This document shows, one piece after another, positions 3,201 to 29,734 of a DNA stretch of 32,082 nucleotides. The notes beneath the pieces are model-generated. The model was not told the origin of the DNA. It saw only the letters and a list, made by a program, of their open reading frames with translations, and did not search any database. This stretch comes from Nemertoderma westbladi (taxonomy: Eukaryota; Animalia; Xenacoelomorpha). A program made the position numbers and the translations under genes. Position 1 is the stretch's first letter. Each line of letters starts with the position of its first letter. The DNA is taken from contig JAUCBJ010008994.1 of NCBI GenBank assembly GCA_032718475.1, forward strand, positions 1-32,082, written 5' to 3'.

Positions 3201-4046
3201 GCAATCATAAAACGGACCATCATAACCATTAATTTTCAATAAGTCAGTGGGAGTGTCTGTGGATAAAAATGTTTCCGTAAAAGTGAGTACTTCGAAAGTA
3301 TGATTTAGTGAAAGTAAAAAATCTGTAATGGCTGAAAAGTTTTTTGGCAAGCTACGACAGTTTAAATGAAAAACCGACATTGTTACAGATGGGGAATTCT
3401 CCAAAATAGAGTTAAATTGATTTTCAGTCACAGTACCTTTATCTATATTTAAATTTGTAATATTTTCGTCAGGGTCTATGTGGCTAAAAGTTTGATTAAT
3501 GTTGTTAATTATAGAGCTGGTTAGTTCCTCTTCTATCTCTTTATTACCAAAGATATCGTAATCGTCAGTATCGATATTAACGAAGGGAAAAATTGTAGCA
3601 TTACAGAAAATACAAAAATGATACTTTAAATCATTAGTGTCACAGAGATCGTCATCTGAGAGGTGTGTGCCACATTGAATATGAAAGGAGTTACGACATA
3701 AAGCACAATAAAAAGTATATTCCGCTGGAGTAATTTCAGAAAAACAAAAGTAACAATGTAAGTTATTAGAGCTTGAGTGCATCCAGTGAGATTGTTAGGA
3801 AGTCACTTAGAGCAGTATATATGCTTTTCAGCGGTTACACCAATATACTAGAATATGTGCTAAAAATATAGTAATGTCTACAGCTGACGTCATATAAATT
3901 TTGTTATATATCTGGCATATAAATAAAGTATCAAAGGCGCCTTAATAGAAGGATAAACATAATATTCATAAAATAATATATGTAGGGTTTACCTTGGTTC
4001 ATTTAACCTTGGAAACAAGAGTATACACACATAAATATAAATGGAG
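240..4046 (-). mobile_element. CR1/L2-like LINE (single ORF; boundaries approximate)
   Basis: The ORF above plus AT-rich UTRs. The 5' side abuts the Polinton subterminal-like sequence starting at ~4047. No ORF1 or TSD identified. Confidence 0.7.
492..3782 (-). CDS. CR1/L2-clade non-LTR retrotransposon ORF2: N-terminal PHD-like Cys/His finger, APE endonuclease, reverse transcriptase
   Basis: Uninterrupted 1096-aa ORF. N-terminal CxxC..CxxC..HxxC..CxxC; endonuclease motifs HLNCRSL, TET, GTIYRP, GDFN, IDHIF, SDH; RT motifs YRPISLL, QFGFR, DLKKAYD, GVPQG, FADD, FLGIWLD. Confidence 0.95.
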   Translation of the reverse strand: MHSSSNNLHCYFCFSEITPAEYTFYCALCRNSFHIQCGTHLSDDDLCDTNDLKYHFCIFCNATIFPFVNIDTDDYDIFGNKEIEEELTSSIINNINQTFSHIDPDENITNLNIDKGTVTENQFNSILENSPSVTMSVFHLNCRSLPKNFSAITDFLLSLNHTFEVLTFTETFLSTDTPTDLLKINGYDGPFYDCRVLPNTVKISKKKLKRGGTAIYFKESINFDMKPELRIEGFENSWVQLHRPNKRPLVIGTIYRPNSVVLPYFLTKLEKTITDLNKSNCDIILTGDFNVDLLKTTKQSKEYIDIMNSIGLVQLISQPTRVTPWSRTNIDHIFTNITSSVSQSGTFFTKVGTSDHQPTFITLQNYHNYFKTTKTTNFFDYSKFNCNNFLRDLNCLDTWTYTDPSIPNNCKLDQFYTDLEKVCLKHAAPKTLKPKEIPAKPWMTPNLVKRTIIKNDLYRAFIKNPTVVNELAFKRYRNILTSVLREAEKNYYKTQFDKCSNNNRKTWRIINSALNKSGKTAAPKKLTVITGDVIETLTDPKQISQAFNNHFSTVGSNLSQQIPKSNRSPLRHISHNGPQSFVLTETSPVEIQYHLLHIKTSSSSNDIFSTKLLSLGALPLSHHLSYLINLSISCGFFPKSLKRAKVVPVFKAGDPTDKNNYRPISLLPIISKLFEIIINNQLQSYIAKFKIITQSQFGFRPKTTTTHALLSMLEKIYQTLEDKLYSCAIYIDLKKAYDTLDHSILLKKLQAYGIRGIPHMLLTDYLTDRVQVTVVDNCLSSVMPLVCGVPQGATLSCLLFLLYINDLPNASSLFTTLFADDTTLFSQNQSIQNLIKNTNIELIKISNWLIDNSLSLNVKKTEHTFFSNRNSNNINSSLTINGINIKQTNAAKFLGIWLDSKLSWKIHIEYLIKKISRTAGIFYKLRHIFPSLIIKRLYYSLVHPYLLYGLILWGKSKTSYIKPLRIKINKIIRCITFSHFQASSNPIYKSPQILPLNLLYTHQVGLLMFDTQNNLLPLSATQFSNLFKKISTVHSYNTRSSANQNLYTPFVRLLTSRQSMNFQGPQVWNSIPLTIRQITSKPLFSKKFREFLFSTI

Positions 4047-6012: not shown

Positions 6013-6419
6013 TAATTTTATTAATGAAAGTGTTCACTGTAATAACAATAAATCATTGTACCACAAATTATTTCGGCACCTCAGTTAGATAATACAGACA
6101 AAATAGACCACACTGAGTCGAATGTGGCGCTTGAAATATTTTACGATTCCATGTATGCCTTTGGGTATATTTATGTAACCAATAGGATATTCTTGGTGGT
6201 GGGGCTTTACCAAAAGAATCTAAATAATGCGCAACCCTGTTGACCACGCACGCAAGACCAGTGTTGTCCCGGAAGACCTATACGTTGATTATTAATAATA
6301 AATGAATAATTGTGTTTATGCTTATTTTTTTTGTGTATTAGGTGTAATTGGTCGATTGCATAAACACTGATGTATTCGGACCCCACCGGGAATTTCGCTA
6401 ATAGTTTAGAGTCCAACAT
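6013..6419 (-). pseudogene. Polinton/adintovirus adenain-like cysteine protease (copy A, frameshifted)
   Basis: MLDS..VYAIDQL..FIINN..PGQHW, then out of frame DSFGK..IFQAPHSTQCGLFCLYYL: the His/Asp/Gln-Cys order of clan CE proteases. Confidence 0.85.
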
Positions 6420-6503: not shown

Positions 6504-7214
6504 TTATTCGGTTATTATTTCTTTGGCCTCCGAAATAGTTAGAAGAGCGTTGTAGCTTGACATGATTATAACATTAATAGTGTTAACTAGCACATTAATA
6601 CATACAAATTCGGCGTAATTTAAATCGACATGTTTAAAATGTAGCGGATTGCTGCTTAATTCCCCGTTGAACCTGGCGTTGGTAAAAGCATTCCAATCAA
6701 AATATACTTAGGTAATTTTCCTTGGATTATGTTCGATTCTGTATAACTGGACTGCCCACCACCAATAGTGAAGGTTTTCACTTCTTGTTTTAACAAGTTA
6801 TAAATAAAGTCATTTTTTTGTGACCCCAATAAATGCGCGCGCATAACCTCAGAATCAATCCTGTGGCGTTTTATTTTTAAATTAAGTTAATCCGGCTGGG
6901 GGTTCAACTTTCAAAAAAAAATTATTTGATACTCGGTCTATACGAAGTCGAACGTTAATTCCGGGCGGCAATAATTTGTCCTGACTTGTCAAGTCTAGAA
7001 AAATTGGGGTCACTACGAATTTAACATAATTACCACGAATGTCGTTCCCAGTAGTGACAGGTACCCCACCCAGATTATTATCTGTATCCTCATAACCACC
7101 AGCTCTTAAAATACCGCTTTTTTCGTTAGCATCTGTCAACAGTAATGTCTGAAACGTAGACTTATTGGCGTAGAATCCATTCGAGGTTTCAACTAGCTTT
7201 TCATTTAGGTACAT
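6504..7214 (-). pseudogene. Polinton/Maverick major capsid protein (double jelly-roll), copy A, with deletions and frameshifts
   Basis: YLNEKLV..Y..K..QTLL, DL..QDKLLPPGINVRLRI, EVKTFTIGGG..N..QGKLPKYILIGM, NPLHF, C-terminal ..EIITE match the Polinton MCP pattern. Adjacent to the protease. Confidence 0.88.
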
Positions 7215-7364
7215 CGAATGTAAAAAATAAAAATAGGTAAAAATAGGTTTTTTTTTGCCAGCTTTAGAGCTATAATTATACAGAAAGAGTCACTTGTTAA
7301 AATTCCAACAAAAGTAGCACGAGAGCCTTAGTTGAGTTGTCACATTAATTAATATAGGAGGTGG

Positions 7365-7590
7365 CCTACTACTATGATCAGCATGCGCATTGCTGCTGCA
7401 TTTTTAATAATCCTGTGCCGGCTTGTTGACAAAATTGCGCCGCTACAATGCCCTATCACCCATGACATTTGCTAGATCATCCACATCTTCAAGACCAGTG
7501 TCCTTTAAAATGCGCCTCAAGAAAGTCATGGGCTATCCACCACGCCTATCCACCCCTATGAGGCCGCCAAAGCACACAATCTCACCTCAA
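7365..7590 (-). mobile_element. Decayed 3' end of RTE-like LINE (also at ~20305-20530 and ~23586-23811)
   Basis: Minus strand reads LWRPHRG/RRGG*PMTFLRRILKDTGLEDVDDLANVMGDRAL*RR, resembling the C-terminus of the RTE fragment at 13776-14134. Followed by a TAGTAGTAG tail. Confidence 0.5.
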
Positions 7591-8236
7591 GTGCATCAGT
7601 TTGTATTTTAATTACCTTGCTCTCGTGATACTTTTACCGAAAGATTAAACTTCACCCTATTGCAAGTCACTAGACACATATTGTATATATTGATGGTCTC
7701 ATATCAGAAGGGGCTAAGTCACATCTTTTCTCTACAGGAAATGGGATTATTGATCATATATAGTAGATTGTTATATAGCTCGGTGTACATTCTGCCAGAG
7801 CCCCAAAGAACCAGAATGTATGGTTGCTGTGATATTTTCAATTTCATATTGACCTAATCAGAGAGCCCTTTAGTAATCATTAGATTTGGTATTTATTTTT
7901 TCAAACCCGTAATAGTGAACTCTCGAACACAAGTTTTATTTTTATTAATTAATATTTTAATAAATAAACATTTCCATATAATAATAATAATTCAATACAA
8001 TTATATTACCCTGCAACCATTATTTAGTTTTTATCGGCTAATTCCATGCGTTGTAGGCGGATGGCAGTGGCTTCCTTTCCCTGATTGTCTAGCGCTTCCT
8101 AACCTGTATAGTTCAACAAAGTTTAAAGTTTTTACTTTGTGTAATTAATTAAATTATATTCATGTAACATTTATGTAATAAAACGGATATGGTGAGGGAT
8201 CAAACTTGTTGTTACTTGTTTAATTTACCTTGTCAA

Positions 8237-8552
8237 TTAATCCCACGCTTCTTCTCTACATTCTTTTTCTGTGCCCCACGCTTCTTTCTACCATTCAATG
8301 CTAGGGTTTTCAGTTTTGATATGTTCTTCTTCTTTTCTTTTTTCGTGAATTGACTTCCCATTTCTATACTGACAGTATCATAACTGGTATTGTTTTTCTG
8401 CCTCAGGAAAGTAATGGCATTGAACGTTCGGGCATTGAACTATTTTTTCTCCCGGATGATTTCTTCTACATTTTCTTAAGTGTCTGATAAATCTTTCCAC
8501 ATGAATTCTGTGGGTTGTTTCATATTGGTCATATTATATACACATTATCGAT
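8237..8552 (-). pseudogene. GTSF1/Asterix-like double CHHC zinc-finger pseudogene (copy A)
   Basis: Manual translation: DNVYII*P/YETTHRIHVERFIRHLRKCRRNHPGEKIVQCPNVQCHYFPEAEKQYQL*YCQYRNGKSIHEK...EW*KEAWGTEKECREEAWD*. Lost ATG, one frameshift, internal stops. Confidence 0.85.
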
Positions 8553-8810
8553 TATAAAAAGTATATGATAAATATTGTATATTATAAAATTGTTAATTAA
8601 ATTATTAATAAGTATTACCTTAGTGAATATTTAATGAATATAGAGAAGTGGTTTATTATATTATATTCAAGTAATACTCAATCTAAGGCTTATTTATCAT
8701 CAAATAAATTTATTATAATATATTAACTACATTAAATGTATTTTATTTTTTAGATTAACCAAAATCACCCATTATAATAGAATAATAACTAACGAACTTA
8801 TCCATCACCA

Positions 8811-8903
8811 TCACAATAGAATAAAACAATAAACGTTCGAAAGTACACCCTGAATCATATGTGTAGCATCGTATGGGCATATAATATAATCACTGTTATC
8901 CAT
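8811..8903 (-). pseudogene. Truncated 5' fragment of another GTSF1-like gene
   Basis: MDNSDYIICPYDATHMI... then diverges. Upstream 8905-9040 resembles the upstream of the 14294-14602 copy (ccaaaaagacaaa...aaactt...ttttttaga..aatgat.taacttt). Confidence 0.7.
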
Positions 8904-9140
8904 CCAAAAAGACAAACTAAAAACCAAAAAAACAAACTTGAAAAAAAAGAAAACTTAATTTAAGTGAGTTTACAAGAAAACTTGGTTTTAGCAAACTTAA
9001 CTTTTAATGTTTTTTAGAAGGAATGATGTAACTTTTATAGTATTCCTTCTCGTGGTAGACTCGCGGAGTGTAAATGCGATAATCCACATGCACACAGAAT
9101 CCAGAAAAGTGGATTCTGCCACTTTTCTGGAAAATCCTAC

Positions 9141-9700: not shown

Positions 9701-9733
9701 TTATTATAATAATTGTCGAAATTCTTACTTACA

Positions 9734-9978
9734 TTAATTTTCGGTAGGTGGCGGTGTGTGAGTTTCACCAACCATCCGCGGCGGACATATGCACATCGGC
9801 CGCCGACCAGCGAATGGGCCATCTTTACGCAGCCCGGCTACATCTGCGAGTGCGTCGCCCGCACCCTATCTGCCCACAAATCTCTAAATAGTTTATATAG
9901 TCTCCATCTTGTAAATGTTAATTCGTGATGCACGAAAGGTTGCACAACTAACGTTGGTTTCTTACCGCCTTCTGCCAT
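9734..9978 (-). pseudogene. MAEGG/CxCPP accessory ORF, frameshifted copy
   Basis: MAEGGKKPTLVVQPFVHHELTFTRWRLYKLFRDLWADRVRATHS/DVAGLRKDGPFAGRRPMCICPPRMVGETHTPPPTEN*, homologous to 26024-26302. Confidence 0.65.
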
Positions 9979-10197: not shown

Positions 10198-13161
10198 CCC
10201 TTTAATACCCGAATTAAGTATTTATGATGGAAAAAATATTTTCATGCATAATTGTCATGTATAGGGCCCATTTGGGATAATAAAAAAAAAAATTAAAAAA
10301 TTCACCCACGGGTTTTACGTATAGAGGGTCGTTGTTCCTGAACAACATTGGGTATTTGTGGTATAAATCACGCCCTAGATTATTGGTATAAATAACACCC
10401 TAGATTATCTCATAAGTGTCAATGATTTTTTAGTTATATGATATCAAGACTTGATCGAATCGTGTCCACCTTGTCGATGCAAGTACCAGTCTGTCTCAGT
10501 CTCATGTTCATTTCTTGTCAGTTCGTCTGTCTGTCAAAAAAGTATTATTAGAAAATACAGTATATTGACTGTGATTTATTTAATTGAATAAAACATTTAT
10601 CAAAAATAGTTTTCATTTCCGATGGTGAAACAGATAAAAACAGTTTTTGTTTTTTACAATGCACAATAGAACTCCGCACTTTGTACATTGCCAATGCGAA
10701 TAACCGTTAACACAATAGCGACATCGACCTTGATTCGTCATAAATTTAGGGAAGTGGTCTGTCAGATCATACCGAACATCGTTAACTGGGATTGGAACAG
10801 TAGATTTGGATTTCTTGGGTGGAATGGTAATGGGTTCATTGGTAGAGATAGATGGGCGGCCTCGCTTCGAAGTACATGTTGCCTTTCCAGACTTCATTAA
10901 ACTATGGGCTATAATAGTTTGGAAACGAATTAGTGCTAACTGCTTCTTCTTGACAATAGAGAGTTGATTACAGTGACGGCGATAGAGCAACCATCCATTG
11001 GTCACCGAAATTCCAATCAAATAATGTACGATTGGCATATACCACTTTCTACGTTTCAGCTGTATACGGTATAAAGAAAGTAACATATCGCACAAATCCA
11101 CCCCTCCCATACACAAATTGTATTCCTCTACCATGCGAGGTCTATCAATACTAATATATTTCTTATCTGTCGCTGACCATCTATTGGCTGGTGTACCCAA
11201 GTCATGTCCAATGTAACTAGATACCAGCTGAACGACACCATTATCTAACCACTTCACAAGCGTCACCTTTCTATTCACTTCTACTCTCCAATCTAGAGCA
11301 CCTCTTCCTTGCTTCCTCATTTCCTTCTCAGTTAAAAGAAGTTTGTTCGCACCCCGTAACCGATTACTACGAATGGTACCAATTGACCAGATACCCCTAT
11401 CGATAAGATATTTAACTAAATCGATGGACGTAAACAAATTATCGAAATATACCTTATGCCCCAGTCCACGTTGTAACGTCTTAGTTAATCTGACCACTAC
11501 ATTCCCACCACTACCCAATCCAACAATTTCATCCTGGTCCGTGCATTTCCCACAGTATATTTCGAAATCGTATATCAACCCACTGACTCCACAGCGAGCC
11601 CAAACCTTAAAACCCCACTTGATCGGTTTCTTGGGCATGTATTGGCGCATGCCCACTTTTGCCCGCGTTTTCGATGGGATCATCTGTTCGTCCACAGAAT
11701 GTCTCTCTTCAGCAGAAACACTTCTGCACATCTCTCGCACAGAATCAAGCATTGGTCTAACTTTATATAATTTATCTGAATGAGGATCACCAGCTGGTGG
11801 TTCCATTGTGATATCATTGCAGTGAAAATATCTCTTAATAGTTTCAAACCGTAGTCGACTCATAGTATCCGCTATTGCAGAGACGCGAGTTTCATAAGCC
11901 CAATACATTCGATATTGAGGATATTTAATTACACCCATTAGAATTAAAATTCCGAGAAATTGATCAATTTCATTCTCAGAAACATTTATACACTTTGACG
12001 TTTTCGTTTGGACTGTCGAATATAAATTGGTCTGCTCTGCTAAATGCTTAACGAGTGACTCACGAAAGAAATATCTAAAGTATTCCAGTGGCTCATTTGG
12101 TTCAGGAGGTGGATTAGGAAACGCATCCCCAATAAACTCACTGTCTACAGGTTCACTATCCTGCTTTCGCCACCTGTAACTACTATCCTGTATCTCTTCA
12201 TTCGATTTGGAAGCTATATCATCAAGAGCTGCGGCGAGATCGACTATATCATCTGCAGAAATCTCATCCGTAATATCACCACCACCATCAACATTAATAT
12301 CAAACTGTGTTACATCTTCCAATTCATCGTCATCTTCACTCTCAGACCCACTTTTGTTCCCCCCAGGTAACTCCACGCCGACTATCTCATCTTCTTCCAC
12401 CATACCACGGGTTTCGTCAAACCGAACACGACTTCGTTTATAAAATCTACCAGAAGGAATTGATAGTGAATTCTCTGCACTATCACTATCAGCAATATCT
12501 AATCGATTTACTGTTCTCAGGTCTGATAACATTAGCGAGAGGTTAGGGTTAAATCGACTCATACTGTATCTCTTCAGTATAAAAATTAGAAAGTCAAAAT
12601 AAAGTGAAACAACATGAGTAAGAGGCAGACAGACAGACAAATAGACTTTTGAGAAGATAAATTTTAATTTATAATAATATATTTGACCTGAGATACAACT
12701 CTACAGTGTCCAATTACTAAGGCTGCTTTTTACATGGTGTTATAGGTAATGTCCCAAATTTACTTCCATGAATGACCAATGTTGTTCTGTAACAACATGT
12801 AGAAAACAATGCACCACACCCCCCTAAACATACATTCTGCTATGGGGTAACGATTAGTAGGTAGTTAACACGTTATAGGCTATCTGCATATTTTTCGTAG
12901 CTCTTATTATGTTGAAAACAACATACGTTATGGCCTAGAAAGAAGCGCTCTAACGTATAGTGGTACCTGATTCGCTATTTCATCTTTAAAGTCGATCTAT
13001 GGCTATCGGCTTCGTATTGACTCTGTCAGATCAGGTTTAATTACAAACTACAATCATTATGCTATTTATAGCACCCAATCACAAAACAGGAAATTGAATT
13101 TTGTTCATGAGGGAACCAATTATATTTATGTTGTTTACAAACAACAGTGGGCATTAAAGGG
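10198..13161 (-). mobile_element. Autonomous piggyBac transposon
   Basis: TTAA at 10194-10197 and 13162-13165; TIRs CCCTTTAATACCC / GGGCATTAAAGGG (1 mismatch); subterminal TGTT(G)..AACAACA palindromic motifs; intact transposase. Confidence 0.93.
10613..12562 (-). CDS. piggyBac (PGBD-like) DDD transposase
   Basis: Catalytic SVDEQM, FDNLF, GGVDLCD; YMPKKPIKWGFK; C-terminal Cys-rich domain CRYC..CTKCGVLLC..CF..FH. First ATG at 12562 (ORF open to 12640). Confidence 0.95.
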   Translation of the reverse strand: MSRFNPNLSLMLSDLRTVNRLDIADSDSAENSLSIPSGRFYKRSRVRFDETRGMVEEDEIVGVELPGGNKSGSESEDDDELEDVTQFDINVDGGGDITDEISADDIVDLAAALDDIASKSNEEIQDSSYRWRKQDSEPVDSEFIGDAFPNPPPEPNEPLEYFRYFFRESLVKHLAEQTNLYSTVQTKTSKCINVSENEIDQFLGILILMGVIKYPQYRMYWAYETRVSAIADTMSRLRFETIKRYFHCNDITMEPPAGDPHSDKLYKVRPMLDSVREMCRSVSAEERHSVDEQMIPSKTRAKVGMRQYMPKKPIKWGFKVWARCGVSGLIYDFEIYCGKCTDQDEIVGLGSGGNVVVRLTKTLQRGLGHKVYFDNLFTSIDLVKYLIDRGIWSIGTIRSNRLRGANKLLLTEKEMRKQGRGALDWRVEVNRKVTLVKWLDNGVVQLVSSYIGHDLGTPANRWSATDKKYISIDRPRMVEEYNLCMGGVDLCDMLLSLYRIQLKRRKWYMPIVHYLIGISVTNGWLLYRRHCNQLSIVKKKQLALIRFQTIIAHSLMKSGKATCTSKRGRPSISTNEPITIPPKKSKSTVPIPVNDVRYDLTDHFPKFMTNQGRCRYCVNGYSHWQCTKCGVLLCIVKNKNCFYLFHHRK

Positions 13162-13220: not shown

Positions 13221-13730
13221 GTATCAAATAATGTTGCCAAAGGCAATTTAATTTGACACAAATCAATCAGATAGGGGACGGGCGATGAATAGATTGTACT
13301 ACAGTAGATAAAATATACAATACAATAGACACTGTACAATACAATATACAGTACATTTGTATTATTTTTGTCGTACAATAGAAGGTAAATGTAGAATGAA
13401 ATATAAAGATGCGAACGGGGCCCAAAACATAAATTACCCTTTCAAGAAAATAAAATGGGCCAGTTTGGTCCTGGTTCAATCCCTCAATAATCTGCGGCTG
13501 TTTGGGCTCTTATTAGACGTAGCATGACTAACCCCATCGAATCCTATGTTGAGTTATACTGTATACCAACGTGGGGCTGCCACAAAGTTTAAATTATTTA
13601 AAGTATCAAATAATGTTGCCAAAGGCAATTTAATTTGACATAAATCAATCAGGTAGGGACGTGAGATGAATAGATTGTACTACAGTTGATGAAATATACA
13701 ATACAATAGGAACAATAATACAATATACAT
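13221..13730. repeat. Local direct repeats: ~13221-13350 vs ~13603-13730, and ~13531-13602 vs ~14790-14861
   Basis: Shared strings gtatcaaataatgttgccaaaggcaatttaatttgaca... and gaatcctatgttgagttatactgtataccaacgtggggctgccacaaagtttaaattatttaaa. Confidence 0.8.
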
Positions 13731-13775
13731 GGCTGCACCAATTATTAGTCGCCAAGTACATACAATTTATACACC

Positions 13776-14134
13776 GAATTGATGGTTGCTACACAAGACT
13801 ACTAAGGGCAGCCCTAAACATCAGCTGGAGACAACACATGACAAACGCCGAGCTTTATGGTACAATACCACCTGTATCAACCACCCTCCGTGAACGCAGA
13901 TTAACATTCAGTGGGCACTGCTGGCGAAGTAAAGACGAGGTCATACCAGATCTACTTCTCTGGCAACCAACTCATGGAAAGCGTAGTCGTGGACGACCTG
14001 CCATAACATATATAGATCAACTTGAAAGGGATACTGAACTTGGGAGAAACGAAATTGCGACAACTATGGAGAATCGGGAAGCCTGGAAGGATCTCATTTC
14101 CACTGTCCGAGTTCGCTCGACCTAGTAGTAGTAG
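13776..14134 (+). mobile_element. 5'-truncated RTE-clade LINE insertion
   Basis: Encodes IDGCYTRLLRAALNISW..TNAELY..RRLTFSGHCWR..LLWQPTHGKRSRGRP..W; (TAG)n tail; TSD TATACACC at 13768-13775 and 14135-14142. Confidence 0.88.
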
Positions 14135-14293
14135 TATACACCAATAATAATTACATAACAATTTATACTACTCTCATAATTAACTCGCAATAGTAACGGG
14201 AAAAAATAGTTTATTTTCTGGTTTGCGTAATGACTGATTAGTGAATTTCGGTGTCTAAACCTTCATGAGTTTAGGGTGCGGAGAATCGCATCA

Positions 14294-14602
14294 TCACCAA
14301 GACGACTCTTGGTATGTTTGCACGTCAATCCCACACCTCTTCTCCCCACGCCGCCGGACATTTAATCTCTTCTCCACTTTTTTCACTTCTTTTGATTTCT
14401 CGAAAATGGAGCTCCTATTCCTATATTCACAAAATTTTAAATGATGTTCCCTTTCGGCTTCTCTGAAGCTATGTGCAATTTCAAATGGGCACTGTACCAT
14501 TTTTTGGCCAGGAAAGTTCTTCCGACACTTTCTTATGTGTTTTACATATTTTTCCGAAAGAATCCTATGCGTGGCATCGTATGGGCAAATAAAATACTCC
14601 AT
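14294..14602 (-). CDS. GTSF1/Asterix-like protein with two CHHC (U11-48K-type) zinc fingers; probable frameshift in the tail
   Basis: Two C-x5-H-x9-H-x3-C fingers: CPYDATH..H..KC and CPFEIAH..H..FC. An alternative frame gives the tail EEIKCPAAWGEEVWD* ending at 14325. Confidence 0.85.
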   Translation of the reverse strand: MEYFICPYDATHRILSEKYVKHIRKCRKNFPGQKMVQCPFEIAHSFREAEREHHLKFCEYRNRSSIFEKSKEVKKVEKRLNVRRRGEKRCGIDVQTYQESSW

Positions 14603-15564
14603 AGTACCAAAAAGACAAATTTAGTAGGATTTACTTTAAAAAAAAAAACTTTGGAAAACTTCACTTTAACGTTTTTTAGAGATAATGATTTAACTTTACA
14701 TGGTTTTTATTTATATAGAAAGGACCACCTTAATATTTCAAATAGGACCATAGTTTTTGGCATGGCATGCGTGAAGGATTAAGCTAAGCACCCCATTGAA
14801 TCCTATGTTGAGTTATACTGTATACCAACGTGGGGCTGCCACAAAGTTTAAATTATTTAAACCTTCAGATTCATTATCATGTAGACCATTGTCAAATCGC
14901 CCAAGAAATTATAATAAACATCTGGTTTTGCAATAGATTGCATTCTTTCACATTGTGTTGTGAAGCAGCCTGCGCGCCTGACCGCACATAATTAAATAAG
15001 GCCCTCTTTTAATACATAAGTTATATACAGTTTATCTTAAATTTATTGAATTTGTTTTTATTTACAACCCTAATTGTTCTACTGTATTATAATTTATGTT
15101 TTATTATAACAAGCTATATCCTGTTAATCTTTATTAATTTTATTTGTACTGAGGTTTTCGTGGGCGCTGTTTCCAATGGTCCTACTCTCAAAACGATCTA
15201 ACCTACTGTATAATTAATTACTTAAGTCTGCGAGGTATGCGTAAGTAACAAACATCGTTTACCAGTTTTCCTTTAAAAACTATGAAGCTATATTGCTTAA
15301 GAGTTCTAAGGGGCGAGCCACGAGGTAAGATGTTTGAGACTTTTTTAGATATATTATTACTTAATTTTGACCCCCCAGTCGGTATCTATTACAATATAGG
15401 CTATATCTTTTTGCGGAGTCACATAGTAGTCTGAAGTTCCCTAGTCTGCCTCTAGAGGGCGAAATGTCTCAAAATGAAAACCATACAGTAGCTATGAATT
15501 GGTTACTAGGCAATAATACTACATTTTGTATAGTTAGGCTAATGCTGATCGAACGAAAACTGCC

Positions 15565-15636: not shown

Positions 15637-15708
15637 AACAGTAACGTTCGAATTTGTTCGTTAACGTTCGAATTTGTAAGACTCTGATTTAAGAACCGAG
15701 GCACACCC

Positions 15709-16425
15709 CACAACCACAGCCACAGCCACAGCCACAACCACAGCCACAGCCACAGCCACAGCCACAGCCACAGCCACAGCCACAGCCACAGCCACAGCCA
15801 CAGCCACAGCCACAGCCACAGCCACAGCCACAGCCACAGCCACAGCCACAGCCACAGCCACAGCCACAGCCACAGCCACAGCCACAGCCACAGCCACAGC
15901 CACAGCCACAGCCACAGCCACAGCCACAGCCACAGCCACAGCCACAGCCACAGCCACAGCCACAGCCACAGCCACAGCCACAGCCACAGCCACAGCCACA
16001 GCCACAGCCACAGCCACAGCCACAGCCACAGCCACAGCCACAGCCACAGCCACAGCCACAGCCACAGCCACAGCCACAGCCACAGCCACAGCCACAGCCA
16101 CAGCCACAGCCACAGCCACAGCCACAGCCACAGCCACAGCCACAGCCACAGTCACAGCCACAGCCACAGCCACAGCCACAGCCACAGCCACAGCCACATC
16201 CACAGCCACAGCCACAGCCACAGCCACAGCCACAGCCACAGCCACAGCCACAGCCACAGCCACAGCCACAGCCACAGCCACAGCCACAGCCACAGCCACA
16301 GCCACAGCCACAGCCCCAGCCGCAGCCGCAGCCGCAGCCGCAGCCGCAGCCACAGCCACAGCCACAGCCACAGCCACAGCCACAGCCACAGCCACAGCCT
16401 CAACCACAGCCACAGCCACAGCCAC
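15709..16425. repeat. (CACAGC)n microsatellite, ~119 units
   Basis: Directly visible hexamer array with a few variant units (CGCAGC, CACATC, CACAGT). Confidence 0.98.
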
Positions 16426-16803
16426 TTCTCCAGCACACCACTTCTCCCCACAGGAGAATATTTGTTTATCTGTTGTCAAAATGTTTAACTAATTTGATGT
16501 TTTGGTTACTCATTCATTATGCATTTAAAATAGGATAAAGTTGACTTTATTTGTTTATTTAAGCATATTATTATGAAATTACATAATTAACCTTTTGCCT
16601 GCCACCCCTCGAAATTTTTTTAAAAATTATAACTTTATCATGTTTTTGACTTTAGATTCGTTGGGTATGATAGGATCAGAACGATTTTTTCAAAACTACC
16701 CACTCTTTGACTCAGGGAGTGTATGTTCCCATATGGGAACATTGGCCATTAAACAGACAAAGTAAATATTTATAACATTTTAAATAAACAGCATAGTTAT
16801 ATA

Positions 16804-17655
16804 TTATGAGTAACTTAGTAGGTAAGTATGTAGTAGTGTGCTGTGCCTCGTACTTTAGAACTTACTTATTATGAGTAACTTAGTAGGTAAGTATGCAGTA
16901 GTGTGCTGTGCAGTTTACTTTAGAACTTACTTATTATGAGTAACTTAGTAGGTAAGTATGCAGTAGTGTGCTGTGTAGTTTACATTAGAACTTACTTATT
17001 ATGAGTAACTTAGTAGGTAAGTATGCAGTAGTGTGCTGTGTAGTTTACTTTAGAACTTACTTATTATGAGTAACTTAGTAGGTAAGTATGCAGTAGTGTG
17101 CTGTGTAGTTTACTTTAGAACTTACTTATTATGAGTAACTTAGTAGGTAAGTATGCAGTAGTGTGCTGTGTAGTGTACTTTAGAACTTGAACTTACTTAT
17201 TATGAGTAACTTAGTAGGTAAGTATGCAGTAGTGTGCTGTGTAGTGTACTTTAGAACTTACTTATTATGAGTAACTTAGTAGGTAAGTATGCAGTAGTGT
17301 GCTGTGTAGTGTACTTTAGAACTTGAACTTACTTATTATGAGTAACTTAGTAGGTAAGTATGCAGTAGTGTGATGTGTAGTGTACTTTAGAACTTGAACT
17401 AACTTATTATACTTATTATGAGTAACTTAGTAGGTAAGTATGCAGTAGTGTGCTGTGTAGTGTACTTTAGAACTTACTTATTATGAGTAACTTAGTAGGT
17501 AAGTATGCAGTAGTGTGCTGTGTAGTGTACTTTAGAACTTACTTATTATGAGCAACTTAGTAGGTAAGTATGCAGTAGTGTGCTTTGTAGTGTATTTTAG
17601 AACTTACTTTTTATGAGTAACTTAGTAGGTAAGTATGCAGAGGTGTGCTGTGTAG
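16804..17655. repeat. 65-bp minisatellite, ~13 copies
   Basis: Unit ttatgagtaacttagtaggtaagtatgcagtagtgtgctgtgtagtttactttagaacttactta starts at 16804, 16869, 16934, 16999 ... 17611. Head-to-tail, no unique spacers. Confidence 0.95.
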
Positions 17656-18694: not shown

Positions 18695-18876
18695 GTCATT
18701 CTCCCCGCCGGGACCACCCCATCTTTACACAGCCCAGCTACATCCAGTGAGTGCATCGCCCGCACCCTATGCCTCCACATAACTCTTATTAGATTCATTT
18801 TGTTAAATTGTTGAAACGATGAAGGATGATGTGTGAAAGGTTCTACAACCAACGTCGGTTTACCGCCTTCGGCCAT
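18695..18876 (-). pseudogene. MAEGG accessory ORF, 3'-truncated (duplicate at 21976-22157)
   Basis: MAEGGKPTLVVEPFTHHPSSFQQFNKMNLIRVMWRHRVRAMHSLDVAGLCKDGVVPA, cut at the duplication junction. Confidence 0.6.
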
Positions 18877-19445
18877 TATGTCGAAATTTTAATAATATAA
18901 TTTTATTTAATAATTTATAATTTAATAATTTAAATAATAAAGTGATGCCGGTATCGCTATTCCCAATGTTAATATAGCAAACTTCAACAGAACTAGCTAA
19001 TTTGGTGAGGCTAATTATCTATGCTTCGCAACGTAACTATATATGGCTTATTTCTTTTGTGAAACCGGTGACATATGTGAGTAGATTGAACCCAGACTGT
19101 TGATTGTCGTTAGAGCGTTTAATTATTGTCTAATGCGCGTAGCATGGATAGAGATTCTGGCCTTTGTGTTAACCACATAGGGCGGGCAGCAGATGCTTGG
19201 TATATATGTAACATGGAAAGAGTTGGGCCCGCTACAGCTATGGTCGATTATCCCGGTTTTACTGGCAAGTTGTTATTAATGGCGCCCACGCGCTAAAGAC
19301 CATGCCTCACTTGTTGCCGCGTGAAGGTCTCATGAATGCGTTAAACTTTGTTAATTGCGTAAAGGCTCCACAAACGACGCGTTAAACTTTGTTATATTGT
19401 GTAAAGGCTCCACGAACATGTTAAGATGGGTTGCATAAAGTATAA

Positions 19446-20154
19446 AATTAATAGCATAAAATGGTTTTCTGGGAAGTTAGGACGGTATGGATACCCATGT
19501 ATGACACGGGAATCGATGTTTAATTCGGCGTAATTTAAATTGAAATGTTTAAAATGTAGCGGATTGCTGCTTAATTCCCCATTGAACCTGGCGTTCGTAA
19601 AAGCATTCCAATCAAAATATACTTAGGTAATTTTCCTTGGATTATGTTCGATTCTGTATAACTGGACTGCCCACCACCAATAGTGAAGGTTTTCACTTCT
19701 TGTTTTAACAAGTTGTAAATAAAGTCATTTTTTTGTGACCCCAATAAATGCGCGCGCATAACCTCAGAATCAATCCTGTGGCGTTTTATTTTTAAATTAA
19801 TACTCATGATTTCTACTCTTGGAATTGTTAATCCGGCTGGGGGTTCAACTTTCAAAAAAAAATATTTGATACTCGGTCTATACGAAGTCGAACGTTAATT
19901 CCGGGCGGCAATAATTTGTCCTGACTTGTCAAGTCTAGAAAAATTGGGGTCACTACGAATTTAACATAATTACCGCGAATGTCGTTCCCAGTAGCGACAG
20001 GTACCCCACCCAGATTATTATCTGTATCCTCATAACCACCAGCTCTTAAAATACCGCTTTTTTCGTTAGCATCTGTCAACAGTAATGTCTGAAACGTAGA
20101 CTTATTGGCGTAGAATCCATTCGAGGTTTCAACTAGCTTTTCATTTAGGTACAT
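19446..20154 (-). pseudogene. Polinton major capsid protein, copy B
   Basis: ORFs 19852-20154 and 19571-19855 plus out-of-frame NPLHFKHFNLNYAELNIDSRVIHGYPYRPNF. C-terminus and protease deleted. Confidence 0.88.
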
Positions 20155-21175
20155 CGAATGTAAAAAATAAAAATAGGTAAAAATAGGTTTTTTTTTGCCA
20201 GCTTTAGAGCTATAATTATACAGAAAGAGTCACTTGTTAAAATTCCAACAAAAGTAGCACGAGAGCCTTAGTTGAGTTGTCACATTAATTAATATAGGAG
20301 GTGGCCTACTACTATGATCAGCATGCGCATTGCTGCTGCATTTTTAATAATCCTGTGCTGGCTTGTTGACAAAATTGCGCCGCTACAACGCCCTATCACC
20401 CATGACATTTGCTAGATCATCCACATCTTCAAGACCAGTGTCCTTTAAAATGCGCCTCAAGAAAGTCATGGGCTATCCACCACGCCTATCCACCCCTATG
20501 AGGCCGCCAAAGCACACAATCTCACCTCAAGTGCATCAGTTTGTATTTTAATTACCTTGCTCTCGTGATACTTTTACCGAAAGATTAAACTTCACCCTAT
20601 TGCAAGTCACTAGACACATATTGTATATATTGATTGTCTCATATCAGAAGGGGCTAAGTCACATCTTTTCTCTTCAGGAAATGGGGTTATTGATCATATA
20701 TAGTAGATTGTTATATAGCTCGGTGTACATTCTGCCAGAGCCCCAAAGAACCAGAATGTATGGTTGCTGTGATATTTTCAATTTCATATTGACCTAATCA
20801 GAGAACCCTTTAGTAATCATTAGATTTGGTATTTATTTTTTCAAACCCGTAATAGTGAACTCTCGAACACAAGTTTTATTTTTATTAATTAATATTTTAA
20901 TAAATAAACATTTCCATATAATAATAATAATTCAATACAATTATATTACCCTGCAACCATTATTTAGTTTTTATCGGCTAATTCCATGCGTTGTAGGCGG
21001 ATGGCGGTGGCTTCCTTTCCCTGATTGTCTAGTGCTTCCTAACCTGTATAGTTCAACAAAGTTTAAAGTTTTTACTTTGTGTAATTAATTAAATTATATT
21101 CATGTAACAGTTAGTAATAAAACGGAAATGGTGAGGGATTGAACTTGTTGTTACTTGTTTAATTTACCTTGTCAA

Positions 21176-21491
21176 TTAATCCCACGCTTCTTCTCTCCAT
21201 TCTTTTTCTGTGCCCCACGCTTCTTTCTACCATTCAATGCTAGGGTTTTCAGTTTTGATATGTTCTTCTTCTTTTCTTTTTTCGTGAATTGACTTCCCAT
21301 TTCGATACTGACAGTATCATAACTGGTATTGTTTTTCTGCCTCAGGAAAGTAATGGCATTGAATGTTCGGGCATTGAACTATTTTTTCTCTCAGATGATT
21401 TCTTCTACATTTTCTTAAGTGTCTGATAAATCTTTCCACATGAATTCTGTGGGTTGTTTCATATTGGTCATATTATATACACATTATCTAT
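21176..21491 (-). pseudogene. GTSF1-like pseudogene (copy B)
   Basis: Near-identical to 8237-8552 with the same lesions. Confidence 0.85.
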
Positions 21492-21608
21492 TATAAAAAG
21501 TATATGATAAATATTGTATATTATAAAATTTGTAATTAAATTATTAATAATTATTACCTTAGTGAATATTTAATGAATATAGAGAAGTGGTTTATTATAT
21601 TATATTCA

Positions 21609-21945
21609 AGTAGTAGGGTAAACAACTTAAATGAAACAGTGTCTGCCATAGTCTACCATGTTAAAGAATTTGCCGAACGGCTCTTGCCCCGCCTACTTAC
21701 TATGATTACCATTGTGTCACCCCGCCCACTTACTATGGTTACCATTGTGCATGTGCATATGTGACATGTCACCACTGTGTATATGTGACATATGTGGTAT
21801 AAGGCCAGTTCGCAGACGGAAGTAATTTAATTAATTCGTGTCTACCGGTTGGCGTTTGACCTTGAACCGCAATAGGTAAAACCCAAAATAGTAAGTGGGT
21901 TGCAGACGTTTGTTATAAAGTCTTTAACATGATAGACTATTACAG
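21609..21945 (+). repeat. Probable Polinton terminus/TIR segment
   Basis: Starts AGTAGTAGGGTAAAC where similarity to copy A ends. CAGTGTCTGCCATAG at +28; internal inverted repeat 21648-21671 vs 21917-21940. Confidence 0.65.
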
Positions 21946-22726
21946 ATGCAACAACTAAAAAAGGTGAATAATAAGGTCATTCTCCCCGCCGGGACCACCC
22001 CATCTTTACACAGCCCAGCTACATCCAGTGAGTGCATCGCCCGCACCCTATGCCTCCACATAACTCTTATTAGATTCATTTTGTTAAATTGTTGAAACGA
22101 TGAAGGATGATGTGTGAAAGGTTCTACAACCAACGTCGGTTTACCGCCTTCGGCCATTATGTCGAAATTTTAATAATATAATTTTATTTAATAATTTATA
22201 ATTTAATAATTTAAATAATAAAGTGATGCCGGTATCGCTATTCCCAATGTTAATATAGCAAACTTCAACAGAACTAGCTAATTTGGTGAGGCTAATTATC
22301 TATGCTTCGCAACGTAACTATATATGGCTTATTTCTTTTGTGAAACCGGTGACATATGTGAGTAGATTGAACCCAGACTGTTGATTGTCGTTAGAGCGTT
22401 TAATTATTGTCTAATGCGCGTAGCATGGATAGAGATTCTGGCCTTTGTGTTAACCACATAGGGCGGGCAGCAGATGCTTGGTATATATGTAACATGGAAA
22501 GAGTTGGGCCCGCTACAGCTATGGTCGATTATCCCGGTTTTACTGGCAAGTTGTTATTAATGGCGCCCACGCGCTAAAGACCATGCCTCACTTGTTGCCG
22601 CGTGAAGGTCTCATGAATGCGTTAAACTTTGTTAATTGCGTAAAGGCTCCACAAACGACGCGTTAAACTTTGTTATATTGTGTAAAGGCTCCACGAACAT
22701 GTTAAGATGGGTTGCATAAAGTATAA

Positions 22727-23435
22727 AATTAATAGCATAAAATGGTTTTCTGGGAAGTTAGGACGGTATGGATACCCATGTATGACACGGGAATCGATGT
22801 TTAATTCGGCGTAATTTAAATTGAAATGTTTAAAATGTAGCGGATTGCTGCTTAATTCCCCATTGAACCTGGCGTTCGTAAAAGCATTCCAATCAAAATA
22901 TACTTAGGTAATTTTCCTTGGATTATGTTCGATTCTGTATAACTGGACTGCCCACCACCAATAGTGAAGGTTTTCACTTCTTGTTTTAACAAGTTGTAAA
23001 TAAAGTCATTTTTTTGTGACCCCAATAAATGCGCGCGCATAACCTCAGAATCAATCCTGTGGCGTTTTATTTTTAAATTAATACTCATGATTTCTACTCT
23101 TGGAATTGTTAATCCGGCTGGGGGTTCAACTTTCAAAAAAAAATATTTGATACTCGGTCTATACGAAGTCGAACGTTAATTCCGGGCGGCAATAATTTGT
23201 CCTGACTTGTCAAGTCTAGAAAAATTGGGGTCACTACGAATTTAACATAATTACAGCGAATGTCGTTCCCAGTAGCGACAGGTACCCCACCCAGATTATT
23301 ATCTGTATCCTCATAACCACCAGCTCTTAAAATACCGCTTTTTTCGTTAGCATCTGTCAACAGTAATGTCTGAAACGTAGACTTATTGGCGTAGAATCCA
23401 TTCGAGGTTTCAACTAGCTTTTCATTTAGGTACAT
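22727..23435 (-). pseudogene. Polinton major capsid protein, copy C
   Basis: Duplicate of 19446-20154. Confidence 0.88.
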
Positions 23436-24456
23436 CGAATGTAAAAAATAAAAATAGGTAAAAATAGGTTTTTTTTTGCCAGCTTTAGAGCTATAATTAT
23501 ACAGAAAGAGTCACTTGTTAAAATTCCAACAAAAGTAGCACGAGAGCCTTAGTTGAGTTGTCACATTAATTAATATAGGAGGTGGCCTACTACTATGATC
23601 AGCATGCGCATTGCTGCTGCATTTTTAATAATCCTGTGCTGGCTTGTTGACAAAATTGCGCCGCTACAACGCCCTATCACCCATGACATTTGCTAGATCA
23701 TCCACATCTTCAAGACCAGTGTCCTTTAAAATGCGCCTCAAGAAAGTCATGGGCTATCCACCACGCCTATCCACCCCTATGAGGCCGCCAAAGCACACAA
23801 TCTCACCTCAAGTGCATCAGTTTGTATTTTAATTACCTTGCTCTCGTGATACTTTTACCGAAAGATTAAACTTCACCCTATTGCAAGTCACTAGACACAT
23901 ATTGTATATATTGATTGTCTCATATCAGAAGGGGCTAAGTCACATCTTTTCTCTTCAGGAAATGGGGTTATTGATCATATATAGTAGATTGTTATATAGC
24001 TCGGTGTACATTCTGCCAGAGCCCCAAAGAACCAGAATGTATGGTTGCTGTGATATTTTCAATTTCATATTGACCTAATCAGAGAACCCTTTAGTAATCA
24101 TTAGATTTGGTATTTATTTTTTCAAACCCGTAATAGTGAACTCTCGAACACAAGTTTTATTTTTATTAATTAATATTTTAATAAATAAACATTTCCATAT
24201 AATAATAATAATTCAATACAATTATATCACCCTGCAACCATTATTTAGTTTTTATCGGCTAATTCCATGCGTTGTAGGCGGATGGCGGTGGCTTCCTTTC
24301 CCTGATTGTCTAGTGCTTCCTAACCTGTATAGTTCAACAAAGTTTAAAGTTTTTACTTTGTGTAATTAATTAAATTATATTCATGTAACAGTTAGTAATA
24401 AAACGGATATGGTGAGGGATTGAACTTGTTGTTACTTGTTTAATTTACCTTGTCAA

Positions 24457-24772
24457 TTAATCCCACGCTTCTTCTCTCCATTCTTTTTCTGTGCCCCATG
24501 CTTCTTTCTACCATTCAATGCTAGGGTTTTCAGTTTTGATATGTTCTTCTTCTTTTCTTTTTTCGTGAATTGACTTCCCATTTCGATACTGACAGTATCA
24601 TAACTGGTATTGTTTTTCTGCCTCAGGAAAGTAATGGCATTGAATGTTCGGGCATTGAACTATTTTTTCTCTCAGATGATTTCTTTTACATTTTCTTAAG
24701 TGTCTGATAAATCTTTCCACATGAATTCTGTGGGTTGTTTCATATTGGTCATATTATATACACATTATCTAT
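24457..24772 (-). pseudogene. GTSF1-like pseudogene (copy C)
   Basis: Duplicate of 21176-21491. Confidence 0.85.
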
Positions 24773-26023
24773 TATAAAAAGTATATGATAAATATTGTAT
24801 ATTATAAAATTTGTAATTAAATTATTAATAATTATTACCTTAGTGAATATTTAATGAATATAGAGAAGTGGTTTATTATATTATATTCAAGTAGTAGGGT
24901 AAACAACTTAAATGAAACAGCGTCTGCCATAGTCTACCATGTTAAAGAATTTGCCGAACGGCTCTTGCCCCGCCTACTTACTATGATTACCATTGTGTCA
25001 CCCCGCCCACTTACTATGGTTACCATTGTGCATGTGCATATGTGACATGTCACCACTGTGTATATGTGACATATGTGGTATAAGGCCAGTTCGCAGACGG
25101 AAGTAATTTAATTAATTCGTGTCTACCGGTTGGCGTTTGACCTTGAATCGCAATAGGTAAAACCCAATATAGTAAGTGGGTTGCAGACGTTTGTTATAAA
25201 GTCTTTAACATGTTTTCGTGATTTGATGAAAAAATGGGGCGAGCCATGAAGCGAGTGAAGCCTTAGCATATGGGTTAAGGTTATAGTATTTATAATATTA
25301 TTTTAATTTGATTATTCTACCTATGGGGCGAGCCATGAAGTGAGTGATAGCATCGAAGTAAGGTTATGACGCAACAACTAAAAAAGGTAAATAAACACAG
25401 ACTTATGGGGCGAGCCATGAAGTGAGTGATAGCATCGAAGTAAGGTTATTGTATTCAACTAACGACAGCCACCAATATTACAATTCTACAGTTATTGCTA
25501 AGCAACTAGTTGTGGGGCGAGCCGCGAAGTGAGTATAAAGTTATAGTATTTATAATATTATTTTTTAATATGATTATTCTACTTATATGCGGAGGGGTGA
25601 GCCATGAATTGTGTGAAAGCATATAGGTGCAATCGGGGAGTTGTCTAATCGTCGTCCGGCGCCGACATAAATTTTATTTGCTAATAACTCGGTTACACAG
25701 TGATTTGATGACAAAATAGGGCGAGCCATAAAGCGAGCGAAGCCTTAGAATATGGGTACCATTAACGAGTTGTGGGGCGAGTTTGATCGATTATTCTTGG
25801 TGGGCATACATACATTGATTGGGTACCACACCCGTGTATAGAAAACTATCTGGACTTCCAGGGGTACGCATCTGGCTATAGCACGCTAACCTGATGTCCT
25901 GATCCTTCGCGTCCTGAGCCTTCGCGCAGCACGAAGTAAGCAAAGCCTTTAGCATGTAGGTACTATTGTTGAATTTGTTGATTATTAATGTTATTATATT
26001 AATTGTCGAAATTATTACTTACA

Positions 26024-26302
26024 TTAATTTTCGGTTGGAAGTGGCGTATGCGTTTCACCGATCATCCGTGGCGGGCACACGCACATCGGTCGTCCCCCAG
26101 CGATCGGCAAGACGATGATCCCCGGGTGCGCCGGGACCACCTCATCTTTATACAGCCAGTCTACCTCCGGCGAGTGCATCGCCCGCACCCTTTGTGCCCA
26201 CATAACTCTGATTAGATTCATCCTGTTAAATTTTTTAAATGTTGAAGGATGATGCACGAAAGGTTGCACAACTAACGTTGGTTTCTTACCGCCTTCGGCC
26301 AT
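26024..26302 (-). CDS. MAEGG/CxCPP accessory protein, 92 aa, unknown function (intact copy)
   Basis: ATG at 26302 through stop; protein-level conservation with the diverged copies at 9734-9978 and 18695-18876. Confidence 0.6.
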   Translation of the reverse strand: MAEGGKKPTLVVQPFVHHPSTFKKFNRMNLIRVMWAQRVRAMHSPEVDWLYKDEVVPAHPGIIVLPIAGGRPMCVCPPRMIGETHTPLPTEN

Positions 26303-26699: not shown

Positions 26700-27139
26700 T
26701 TATTTTATTAATGAAAGTGTCCACAGTAATAACAATAAATCATTGTACCATAAATTAGAGGTGAATATATTCATTGCTCCGGGATTTTTCGGCACCTCGG
26801 TTAGATAATACAGACAAAATAGACCACACTGAGTCGAATGTGGCGCTTGAAATATTTTACGATTCCAAGTATGCCTTTGGATATATTTATGCAACCAATA
26901 GGATATTTTCGGTGGTGGGGATTTTCCAAACGAATCTAAATAATAAGCAATTCTGTTAACCACGCGTACGCAAGACCAGTGTTGCCCTGGTAGGCCTATA
27001 CGTTGATTATTAATAATAAATGAATAATTTTGTTTATGCTTATTTTTTTTGCGTGTATTAGGTGTAATTGGTCGATTGCGTAAACACCGATGTATTCGGG
27101 CCCCACCGGGAATTTCGCTAATTGTATAAAGTCCAACAT
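26700..27139 (-). pseudogene. Adenain-like cysteine protease (copy D, frameshifted)
   Basis: ..IGLPGQHWSCVRVVNRIAYYLDSFGKSPP..WNRKIFQAPHSTQCGLFCLYYL..YND. Confidence 0.9.
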
Positions 27140-27190: not shown

Positions 27191-27716
27191 TTATTCGGTT
27201 ATTATTTCCTTGGCTTCTGAAATAGATAGAAGAGCGTCATAGCTTGCAATTAATATAACGTTAATAGTGTTAACTAGCGCATTACTAAATTTCAGAATCA
27301 AATGCCCGCTTGTATTTATACTAGGTTGAATCTCATGGCTTTGATCGCCTCCCGCGGTAAGATCAAATACTATCAAAGAAAATTGGGTACGAAACCGTTC
27401 TGGTGTTAGACGTTCATTAAACATTCGAATTCCAACATAAAATGATTTTCCAGAAAGTTAGGGCGATATGGATACCCGTGTATAATACGGGAGTCGATGT
27501 TTAGTTCGGCATAATTTAAACCGAAATGGTTAAAATGTAGTGGATTACTGCTTAATTCCCCGTTGAAGCTGGCGTTGGTAAGCATTCCAATCAAAATATA
27601 CTTAGGTAATTTCCCTTGGATTATGTTTGATTCTGTATAACTGGACTGTCCGCCACCAATAGTGAAGGTTTTCACTTCTTGTTTTAACAAGTGATAAATA
27701 AAGTCATTTTTTTGTG
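27191..27716 (-). pseudogene. Polinton major capsid protein, C-terminal half (copy D)
   Basis: EVKTFTI..GKLPKYILIGMLTNASFNGELSSNPLHFNHFGLN..PYRPNF / FSLIVFDLT..GHLILKFSNAL..VILIASYDALLSI. Confidence 0.92.
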
Positions 27717-29452: not shown

Positions 29453-29734
29453 TCAGTCCCGCGCTTCTTCTGGCCATTCCATTCTTTTTTCGTCTTTCTT
29501 TTCCTCTTCTTTCGTTGCACCTTTTTCGAAAATTGATTTGCCATTTCTGTATTGACAGTATCTCAAATGATGCTCTTGTTCCGCTTCAGCAAAGAAATGT
29601 GAGTCAATATTTGGACATTGAATAATTTTCTGATATGGATGATTTTTTCGACATTTTCTTATATGTCTGACGAATCTGTCCGCATGGATCCTATGGCAAG
29701 GGTCATAAGGACAGACGATGTATTCGTTATCCAT
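29453..29734 (-). CDS. GTSF1/Asterix-like protein with two CHHC zinc fingers (intact, 93 aa)
   Basis: CPYDPCHRIHADRFVRHIRKCRKNHP and CPNIDSHFFAEAEQEHHLRYC fit C-x5-H-x9-H-x3-C twice; charged tail ending EWPEEARD; intronless. Confidence 0.9.
   Translation of the reverse strand: MDNEYIVCPYDPCHRIHADRFVRHIRKCRKNHPYQKIIQCPNIDSHFFAEAEQEHHLRYCQYRNGKSIFEKGATKEEEKKDEKRMEWPEEARD

Follow-up and report, generated by a model that had tools for sequence, protein, structure and literature searches.

The window, by which we mean the whole stretch of 32,082 nucleotides of Nemertoderma westbladi DNA that was analysed, carries several copies of a short GTSF1-like gene (mini-GTSF1). A six-frame scan found five CHHC-finger copies, all on the minus strand, together with a 5' fragment near 8900. 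They are given below with the parts of the flagged copy that matter here; an asterisk after residues denotes a stop.

14325..14602, minus strand: flagged GTSF1-like copy (14294 copy), ATG at 14602, two CHHC fingers intact, linker frameshifted
14362..14385, minus strand: GA-rich linker of the flagged copy and exit point from the family frame, its length varying in two other copy types
14325..14372, minus strand: out-of-frame tail EEIKCPAAWGEEVWD*, the acidic-Trp motif of the family, stop TGA at 14327-14325
29453..29734, minus strand: open 93-aa GTSF1-like copy (29453 copy), ending EWPEEARD*, AATAAA 11 nt past the stop
8237..8540, minus strand: broken copy (8245 copy), tail motif doubled, two internal stops
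21176..21480, minus strand: broken copy (21184 copy), near-identical to the 8245 copy
24457..24760, minus strand: broken copy (24465 copy), in a tandem duplicate of the 21184 unit with 99.8% identity
8850..9035, minus strand: 5' fragment of a further copy, MDNSDYIICPYDATH, its upstream stretch resembling that of the 14294 copy

All eight zinc ligands are present in the ORFs of the 14294 and 29453 copies, both of which score above the PF05253 cut-off and have mouse GTSF1 as their best PDB match (for the flagged copy, PF05253 E 1.6e-12 and mouse GTSF1 6X46 E 2.2e-11). The CHHC genes are compact and intronless, with poly(A) signals 11-12 nt past the stop. The 29453 copy ends as had been noted in a preliminary description of this DNA, with the stop at 29455-29453 and an Arg where the key Trp would be expected, its CGG codon (29461-29459) being one change from TGG. 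The end EW*KEAWGTEKECREEAWD* that was described for the pseudogenes is likewise found in the 8245 copy, in which finger 1 is without an in-frame first Cys and finger 2 without its second His. The 21184 and 24465 copies have W at the position of C in the 8245 copy, and the tail is doubled in each of these three. The 5' fragment is matched by the start of the 14294 copy and by the stretch upstream of it (14650-14697 versus 8987-9035, a 49-nt match at 82%). A head-to-tail duplication of 3.28 kb at 18695-25212, 99.8% identical, may be recent or an assembly effect.

The preliminary description gave the common tail of these genes as W..EE[AV]WD*. The acidic-Trp tail is real, with one residue and not two between W and EE (W.EE[AV]WD*), and the four copies other than the flagged one end W.EE[AV][WR]D* or C.EEAWD*. 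As it stands, the flagged ORF (14602-14294) reads through to QESSW*, with the stop at 14296-14294; the tail that had been read in a second frame with a stop at 14325 is present and terminates ...AAWGEEVWD*. The acidic-aromatic motif is therefore out of frame in the 14294 copy, has Arg for Trp in the 29453 copy, and is in frame in two other copy types, which were found in public sequencing runs. When 14280-14400 was shuffled 20,000 times preserving dinucleotides and read in the three minus-strand frames, W.{1,2}[DE]{2}.WD* appeared in none of the shuffles and [DE]{2}.WD in 34.

Part of the flagged region is contained in six of seven listed public DNA runs; contigs were compared over 13900-15200 (X1-X4) and over 14230-14480 (X1, X2, X3 and X5, with no contig of X5 aligned in this interval). 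The two other copy types show different length differences at 14367-14372, one of them in all three runs with cover (X1, X2 and X3), the second in two of these (X1 and X2). With either indel the distance from the ATG to the WD stop is divisible by three, so that the fingers are in frame with the WD tail; the X2 contig of one type passes through the stop with no difference listed there, and for the other type a loose end of X1 reads as a stop in the same register, with Asn replacing Asp. Since two different indels both restore the fingers together with WD*, the WD* reading is that of the family, from which the 14294 copy departs by a natural frameshift. The comparison of copies that the preliminary description had proposed thus supports the WD* frame, and the outcome it had named as adverse, the use of the QESSW* frame by other copies, is found across the junction in no other listed copy type. 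Its placing of the frame change after an A-rich run did not hold: an A6 run lies at 14383-14378, but what separates the copies are longer indels near 14367-14372, within the GA-rich linker. The X1 contig, with 0 differences from the window over 14333-14432, also leads us to reject a slip of sequencing in that run; given this exact match at the junction, the shifted allele exists as genuine DNA (the window and X1 may come from one sample), and the frameshift suspected earlier is seen unchanged there.

Upstream of the break, 25 of the 35 variant sites listed are in third position (p 5e-6) and 23 are synonymous, and a comparison of the window lineages gives a saturated pS (0.75-0.91) beside a pN of 0.15-0.29. 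The mini-GTSF1 family is under purifying selection. Downstream of the break five substitutions are listed, one of which adds a Trp 9 residues before the WD Trp in both in-frame X1 types, the spacing of W98 and W107 in mouse GTSF1. It would be conceivable that the 14294 copy is not broken at all, with QESSW* as a new end favoured by selection, or with the WD tail reached through programmed -1 frameshifting of the ribosome, given that the QESSW* frame is open for 102 aa, that the allele is present in an independent assembly and that an AATAAA is also present downstream of this copy. We consider this extremely improbable: across the junction the frame is peculiar to this copy among the copy types listed, no canonical slippery heptamer is seen, RNA folding does not stand out (z -1.26), and the five downstream substitutions alone, 2/5 of them synonymous in each frame, do not separate the frames.

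Directly downstream of the flagged gene, at 13670-14140 on the plus strand, lies a 3' fragment of a very high-copy LINE-like repeat with a (TAG)n end. A contig in X1 and X2 fuses the tail-coding stretch (14320-14361) to sequence like 14141-14170, and at the flagged copy the tail has a greater summed contig depth, which is not taken as copy number, than the fingers; a graph effect or a short repeat of its own may lie behind both the junction and the depth excess.

A homologue search among 1.84 billion representatives rendered 491 matches at E 0.001, from the best 150 of which 128 with tandem fingers were counted and 22 dropped. The motif [DE].{0,2}W[DE] lies within 70 residues past finger 2 in 96 of these 128 (best 150 of 491). 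Judged by alignment, the acidic-Trp tail of the window family is an ordinary GTSF1 motif, and the earlier view that these proteins stop right on a predicted PIWI-docking motif is borne out in so far as the window tails align with the acidic-Trp motif of the homologues. The earlier statement that Trp residues of mammalian GTSF1 carry PIWI binding agrees with the literature: the mouse W98A/W107A/W112A protein is reported to bind PIWI about 60-fold more weakly (PMC9385479), and the central region of GTSF1 to mediate PIWI binding in mouse and fly (PMC9539491).

With GTSF1/Asterix (PF05253; 6X46; the 9NHB chain) the window family shares the tandem CHHC fingers with an 11-residue linker (111/128 homologues, best 150 of 491), a basic finger 1 and the acidic-Trp motif after finger 2. 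It differs in ending on the motif, with no long tail, in a shorter linker before it, in an extra Trp and a diverged finger 2, and in being multi-copy, intronless and inside a repeat unit. Past the motif the homologue chain runs on for a median of 161 residues, and it ends within 1 residue in 3/96 and within 10 in 5/96 (best 150 of 491); the three that end at WD are unnamed Logan proteins (P0038, P0133, P0138). P0038 sits on a 10.8-kb contig. Among the same best 150 of 491 matches, the linker from finger 2 to the motif has a median of 41 residues, versus 32 in the 29453 copy, and the position 5 residues before the motif Trp, where the window family has its additional Trp, is aromatic in only 3/96. 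The W-x8-WD spacing of the mammalian segment WQCPPCDEDWD, which the preliminary description gave, recurs in several homologues. The window copies diverge in finger 2 and directly past it, and a finger-2 Asn conserved in 107 of the 128 homologues and the Asp after it (85/128; best 150 of 491) are missing from the family.

The preliminary description further proposed a protein that binds PIWI and does not activate it, on the grounds that the residue aligned to the RNA-binding Arg of HQIR is His or Leu. This reading of the residues, His in the 29453 copy and Leu in the 14294 copy at the position of mouse R26, is correct. RNA binding by mouse GTSF1 uses R26, R29, K36 and K39 (PMC9385479), and single mutations of basic residues, R26 included, are reported to lower or abolish it (10.1101/2020.08.11.246769), as would be expected for such a decoy. 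The R26 position is, however, variable family-wide: among the 128 homologues (best 150 of 491) it holds R in 23, K in 14, S in 20, L in 19 and H in 5, so that 91 have neither Arg nor Lys there. All four positions of the ridge are basic in 25/128 and the other three in 96/128 (best 150 of 491). The equivalents of R29, K36 and K39 are kept in the window copies, whose ridge is thus three-quarters basic by sequence and whose finger 1 gains basic residues nearby, with 7 against a mean of 5.2 in the 128 homologues (best 150 of 491). The named ascidian homologues have Ser or Ala at the R26 position and the GTSF1 chain of PDB 9NHB has Glu, which also speaks against the decoy; we take this chain to be silkworm Gtsf1 in a PIWI complex. 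Silkworm Gtsf1 is reported to activate Siwi (PMC9808576). Because Arg is found there in only 23/128 homologues (best 150 of 491) and the window copies retain the remaining three basic residues, the argument from R26 fails, and a protein docked on PIWI with its RNA binding lost along with R26 is very unlikely; as far as the alignment can tell, any defect of the mini-protein, if present, is not the R26 change.

The best named matches listed are ascidian and insect GTSF1-like proteins. Those from ascidians include Ciona savignyi H2Z0X7 and Clavelina CAK8688249.1, which have 46-48% identity over the matched part, and Styela XP_039263964; an R[FY]VRH-type finger-1 helix is common to both the ascidian proteins and the window family. 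The ascidian proteins differ in their length of 219-387 aa and in their long tails, and they are not grouped with the window clade in a tree of 131 rows and 62 columns, in which the bootstrap is unsettled and the window accounts for a single long-branch clade of three rows (99/98).

The genes lie in a recurring minus-strand unit in which the CHHC gene is followed by capsid-like pieces, a cysteine-protease-like frame (in 2/4 units) and an ORF starting MAEGG:

6507..7226, minus strand: capsid-like frames, in pieces, repeated at 19452-20166, 22733-23447 and 27194-27750
26703..27047, minus strand: adenain-like cysteine-protease frame, in which His-Trp, Asp, Gln and Cys follow one another
6071-6329 and 31489-31834: broken copies of the protease frame
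26027..26302, minus strand: ORF starting MAEGG, repeated with the unit at 9733-9978, 18706-18876 and 21942-22157

Four of the five CHHC copies are closely followed, in their own strand direction, by capsid-like frames, three of these four copies being 97-99.8% duplicates, so that there are two independent contexts. The flagged copy has no capsid-like neighbour, sits between the LINE fragment and high-copy repeats, and is tied to the unit only by its start and the 49-nt upstream match to the 8850-9035 fragment. The capsid-like pieces resemble, as we take it, the double jelly-roll major capsid protein of Polintons. In Pfam the protease frame matched Josephin (E 6e-4), Peptidase_C5, the adenovirus endoprotease (E 0.057), and Peptidase_C48, Ulp1 (E 0.17), all below the cut-off. 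The capsid-like and protease-like pieces received no name from PHROGs, NCBIfam, PDB or phage tblastn, and the MAEGG ORF no family match in profile searches. The CHHC and capsid-like queries gave no match to viral contigs, metagenome contig scans gave none either, word-index homologue searches returned nothing for the CHHC copy and two capsid-like pieces, and no match came from motif searches in those portions of the Polinton paper supplements that were covered. A weak viral-contig match of the protease query (L001) was rejected, as it reads as an unrelated phage contig. AlphaFold models of the capsid-like (pLDDT 42) and protease-like (pLDDT 45) frames are of low confidence, and their Foldseek matches are meaningless.

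The genes that define Polintons encode PolB, integrase, ATPase, protease and capsid (PMC4028283). Protein-primed PolB, RVE integrase and packaging ATPase were absent among 17 of 112 frames scanned, the remnants being decayed, and the 25 longest of 197 pairs held no terminal inverted repeat bounding the unit, whose ends may lie outside the window. Because none of these three genes was among the 17 frames scanned and neither the searches nor the folds confirmed the capsid assignment, we use the term Polinton-like for the unit and do not assign it to Polinton/Maverick; the neighbouring frames probably represent remnants of capsid and protease genes from a Polinton/Maverick-type element.

Several other features lie in or around these units. 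Just upstream of the capsid-like pieces, a broken Gly/basic frame (7420-7611, minus strand) may resemble a small conserved Polinton ORF. An open LINE ORF of 1100 aa (495-3794, minus strand), with Pfam endonuclease and reverse transcriptase and a Cys-rich N-terminus, is inserted at the edge of the Polinton-like unit, and an open piggyBac-type transposase frame with a Cys-rich C-terminus (PF13843, E 1e-76) lies at 10616-12700 on the minus strand. There are also a (CCACAG)x120 microsatellite at 15708-16425, a 65-bp satellite of 12.7 copies at 16802-17655, and near-perfect long hairpins at 28078-28293 and 31423-31542 (arms of 103 and 57 nt), which may be MITE-like or fold-back elements. Between the protease-like remnant and the 29453 gene, an open frame of 171 aa (30164-30679, plus strand) has no Pfam or NCBIfam match and only weak PHROGs matches.

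Identity between two of the units is about 70% for the CHHC copies (8275-8556 versus 29458-29738) and 90-93% for their capsid-like neighbours (93% for 6609-6823 versus 27505-27717). This mismatch would fit several old CHHC paralogues per element, or recombination between subfamilies.

We tentatively propose, with a probability of about 0.45, that mini-GTSF1 is cargo of a Polinton/Maverick-type element, predicted to dock on target-bound PIWI and to compete there with host GTSF1, the 14294 copy being a frameshifted member. The gene encodes two CHHC fingers, a short charged linker and the acidic-Trp motif, followed by the stop, and has no introns. From what is known of GTSF1 biochemistry, finger 1 would bind RNA and the Trp motif PIWI, and the gene order suggests that it travels as element cargo. 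More speculatively, the mini-protein could take the GTSF1 site on PIWI and couple poorly to downstream silencing, owing to its diverged finger 2 and absent tail, which would dampen the silencing of its own element. The element may thus have captured a cofactor of the host pathway that silences transposons. The fuller scenario, in which a Polinton/adintovirus lineage captured GTSF1, trimmed it to fingers and Trp motif, kept selected paralogues and antagonises PIWI* competitively, seems to us doubtful, at less than even odds. In the preliminary description the tail motif, the ending of the proteins on it and the family frame were well founded, the R26 decoy was not, and the Polinton-like context, a better reason than the loss of R26 to suspect interference with PIWI, was missed.

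Several findings weigh against our proposal: the negative searches and low-confidence folds for the capsid-like frames, the protease matches below the cut-off, the lack of PolB, integrase and ATPase among the 17 frames scanned and of a long inverted repeat around the unit, the recent duplication behind three of the four capsid-adjacent copies, and the position of the flagged copy away from any capsid-like frame. In addition, the key Trp is replaced by Arg in the sole open copy of the window (29453), short GTSF1-like proteins of hosts exist, and three unnamed homologues also end at WD. It can also be the case, although we find it rather unlikely, that the element carries a stripped, working PIWI activator, with a gain such as the silencing of competitors or latency, or that such a protein was later kept by the host. 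In mouse, two requirements for activation have been demonstrated, RNA binding and docking through Trp (PMC9385479), and since the basic finger 1 and the Trp motif are kept, the family fits an activator as well: three of the four basic residues remain and the basic count of finger 1 is at the top of the range among homologues (best 150 of 491). Finger 2 has nevertheless diverged at positions conserved in most homologues, and a selfish element would, as has been argued (PMC6367137), gain more obviously from less silencing.

The other alternative dispenses with cargo: the copies would be retro-duplicated GTSF1 paralogues of the host, expanded in tandem in a repeat-rich region, with Polinton debris adjacent by accident. 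Several GTSF paralogues are known in many animals (PMC9385479, PMC9808576), at least two from Styela clava are among the matches listed, unrelated elements (LINE, piggyBac-type) abound in the window, and the unequal identities of CHHC copies and capsid-like neighbours indicate no simple joint divergence. Such a host family is nonetheless quite unlikely, as capsid-like frames are found downstream of each of two lineages whose synonymous sites are saturated, the fragment at 8850-9035 places a third type within the same Polinton-like unit, and the genes are compact and have their poly(A) signals immediately past the stop.

There are precedents for the proposal of element cargo. Adintovirus maps show a gene labelled MAEL, on one map beside Penton and Hexon (PMC8502044), a mael-associated group of insect polintons has been described (10.1101/2025.02.07.637071), and the label is expanded as Maelstrom (10.64898/2026.07.28.741253). 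The likeness is that of a PIWI-cofactor homologue in a Polinton-type element; MAEL differs in belonging to another protein family and in being reported in insects, with no function given in the passages of these sources that mention it. GTSF1 and Maelstrom are reported to assemble together on target-bound PIWI, in the PIWI* complex (PMC13269885, PMC13618286). Mimics encoded by elements have also been hypothesised as a driver of the rapid evolution of the piRNA pathway (PMC6367137), the likeness lying in a protein of the element that imitates a binding surface of the host and competes for the partner bound there; that mimic was proposed for Rhino-Deadlock with no protein named in the passage concerned, whereas here there is a candidate. 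No report of GTSF1 as Polinton, Maverick or adintovirus cargo was found among the papers listed by searches of open PMC and bioRxiv. The trimmed, multi-copy, Polinton-associated form of GTSF1 would be a new variant, while its tail is an already known motif.

The presence of mini-GTSF1 in a Polinton-like unit provides a directly testable candidate for an element-encoded mimic, and its natural truncation raises the question of whether the long tail of GTSF1 is needed for silencing. The neighbourhoods of P0038, P0133 and P0138 could be used to test for independent capture by mobile elements. If the antagonist reading is true, it would provide a concrete anti-piRNA factor in an animal and, together with MAEL in insects, it would mean that elements of this kind have on two occasions appropriated a component of one and the same target-engaged PIWI complex.
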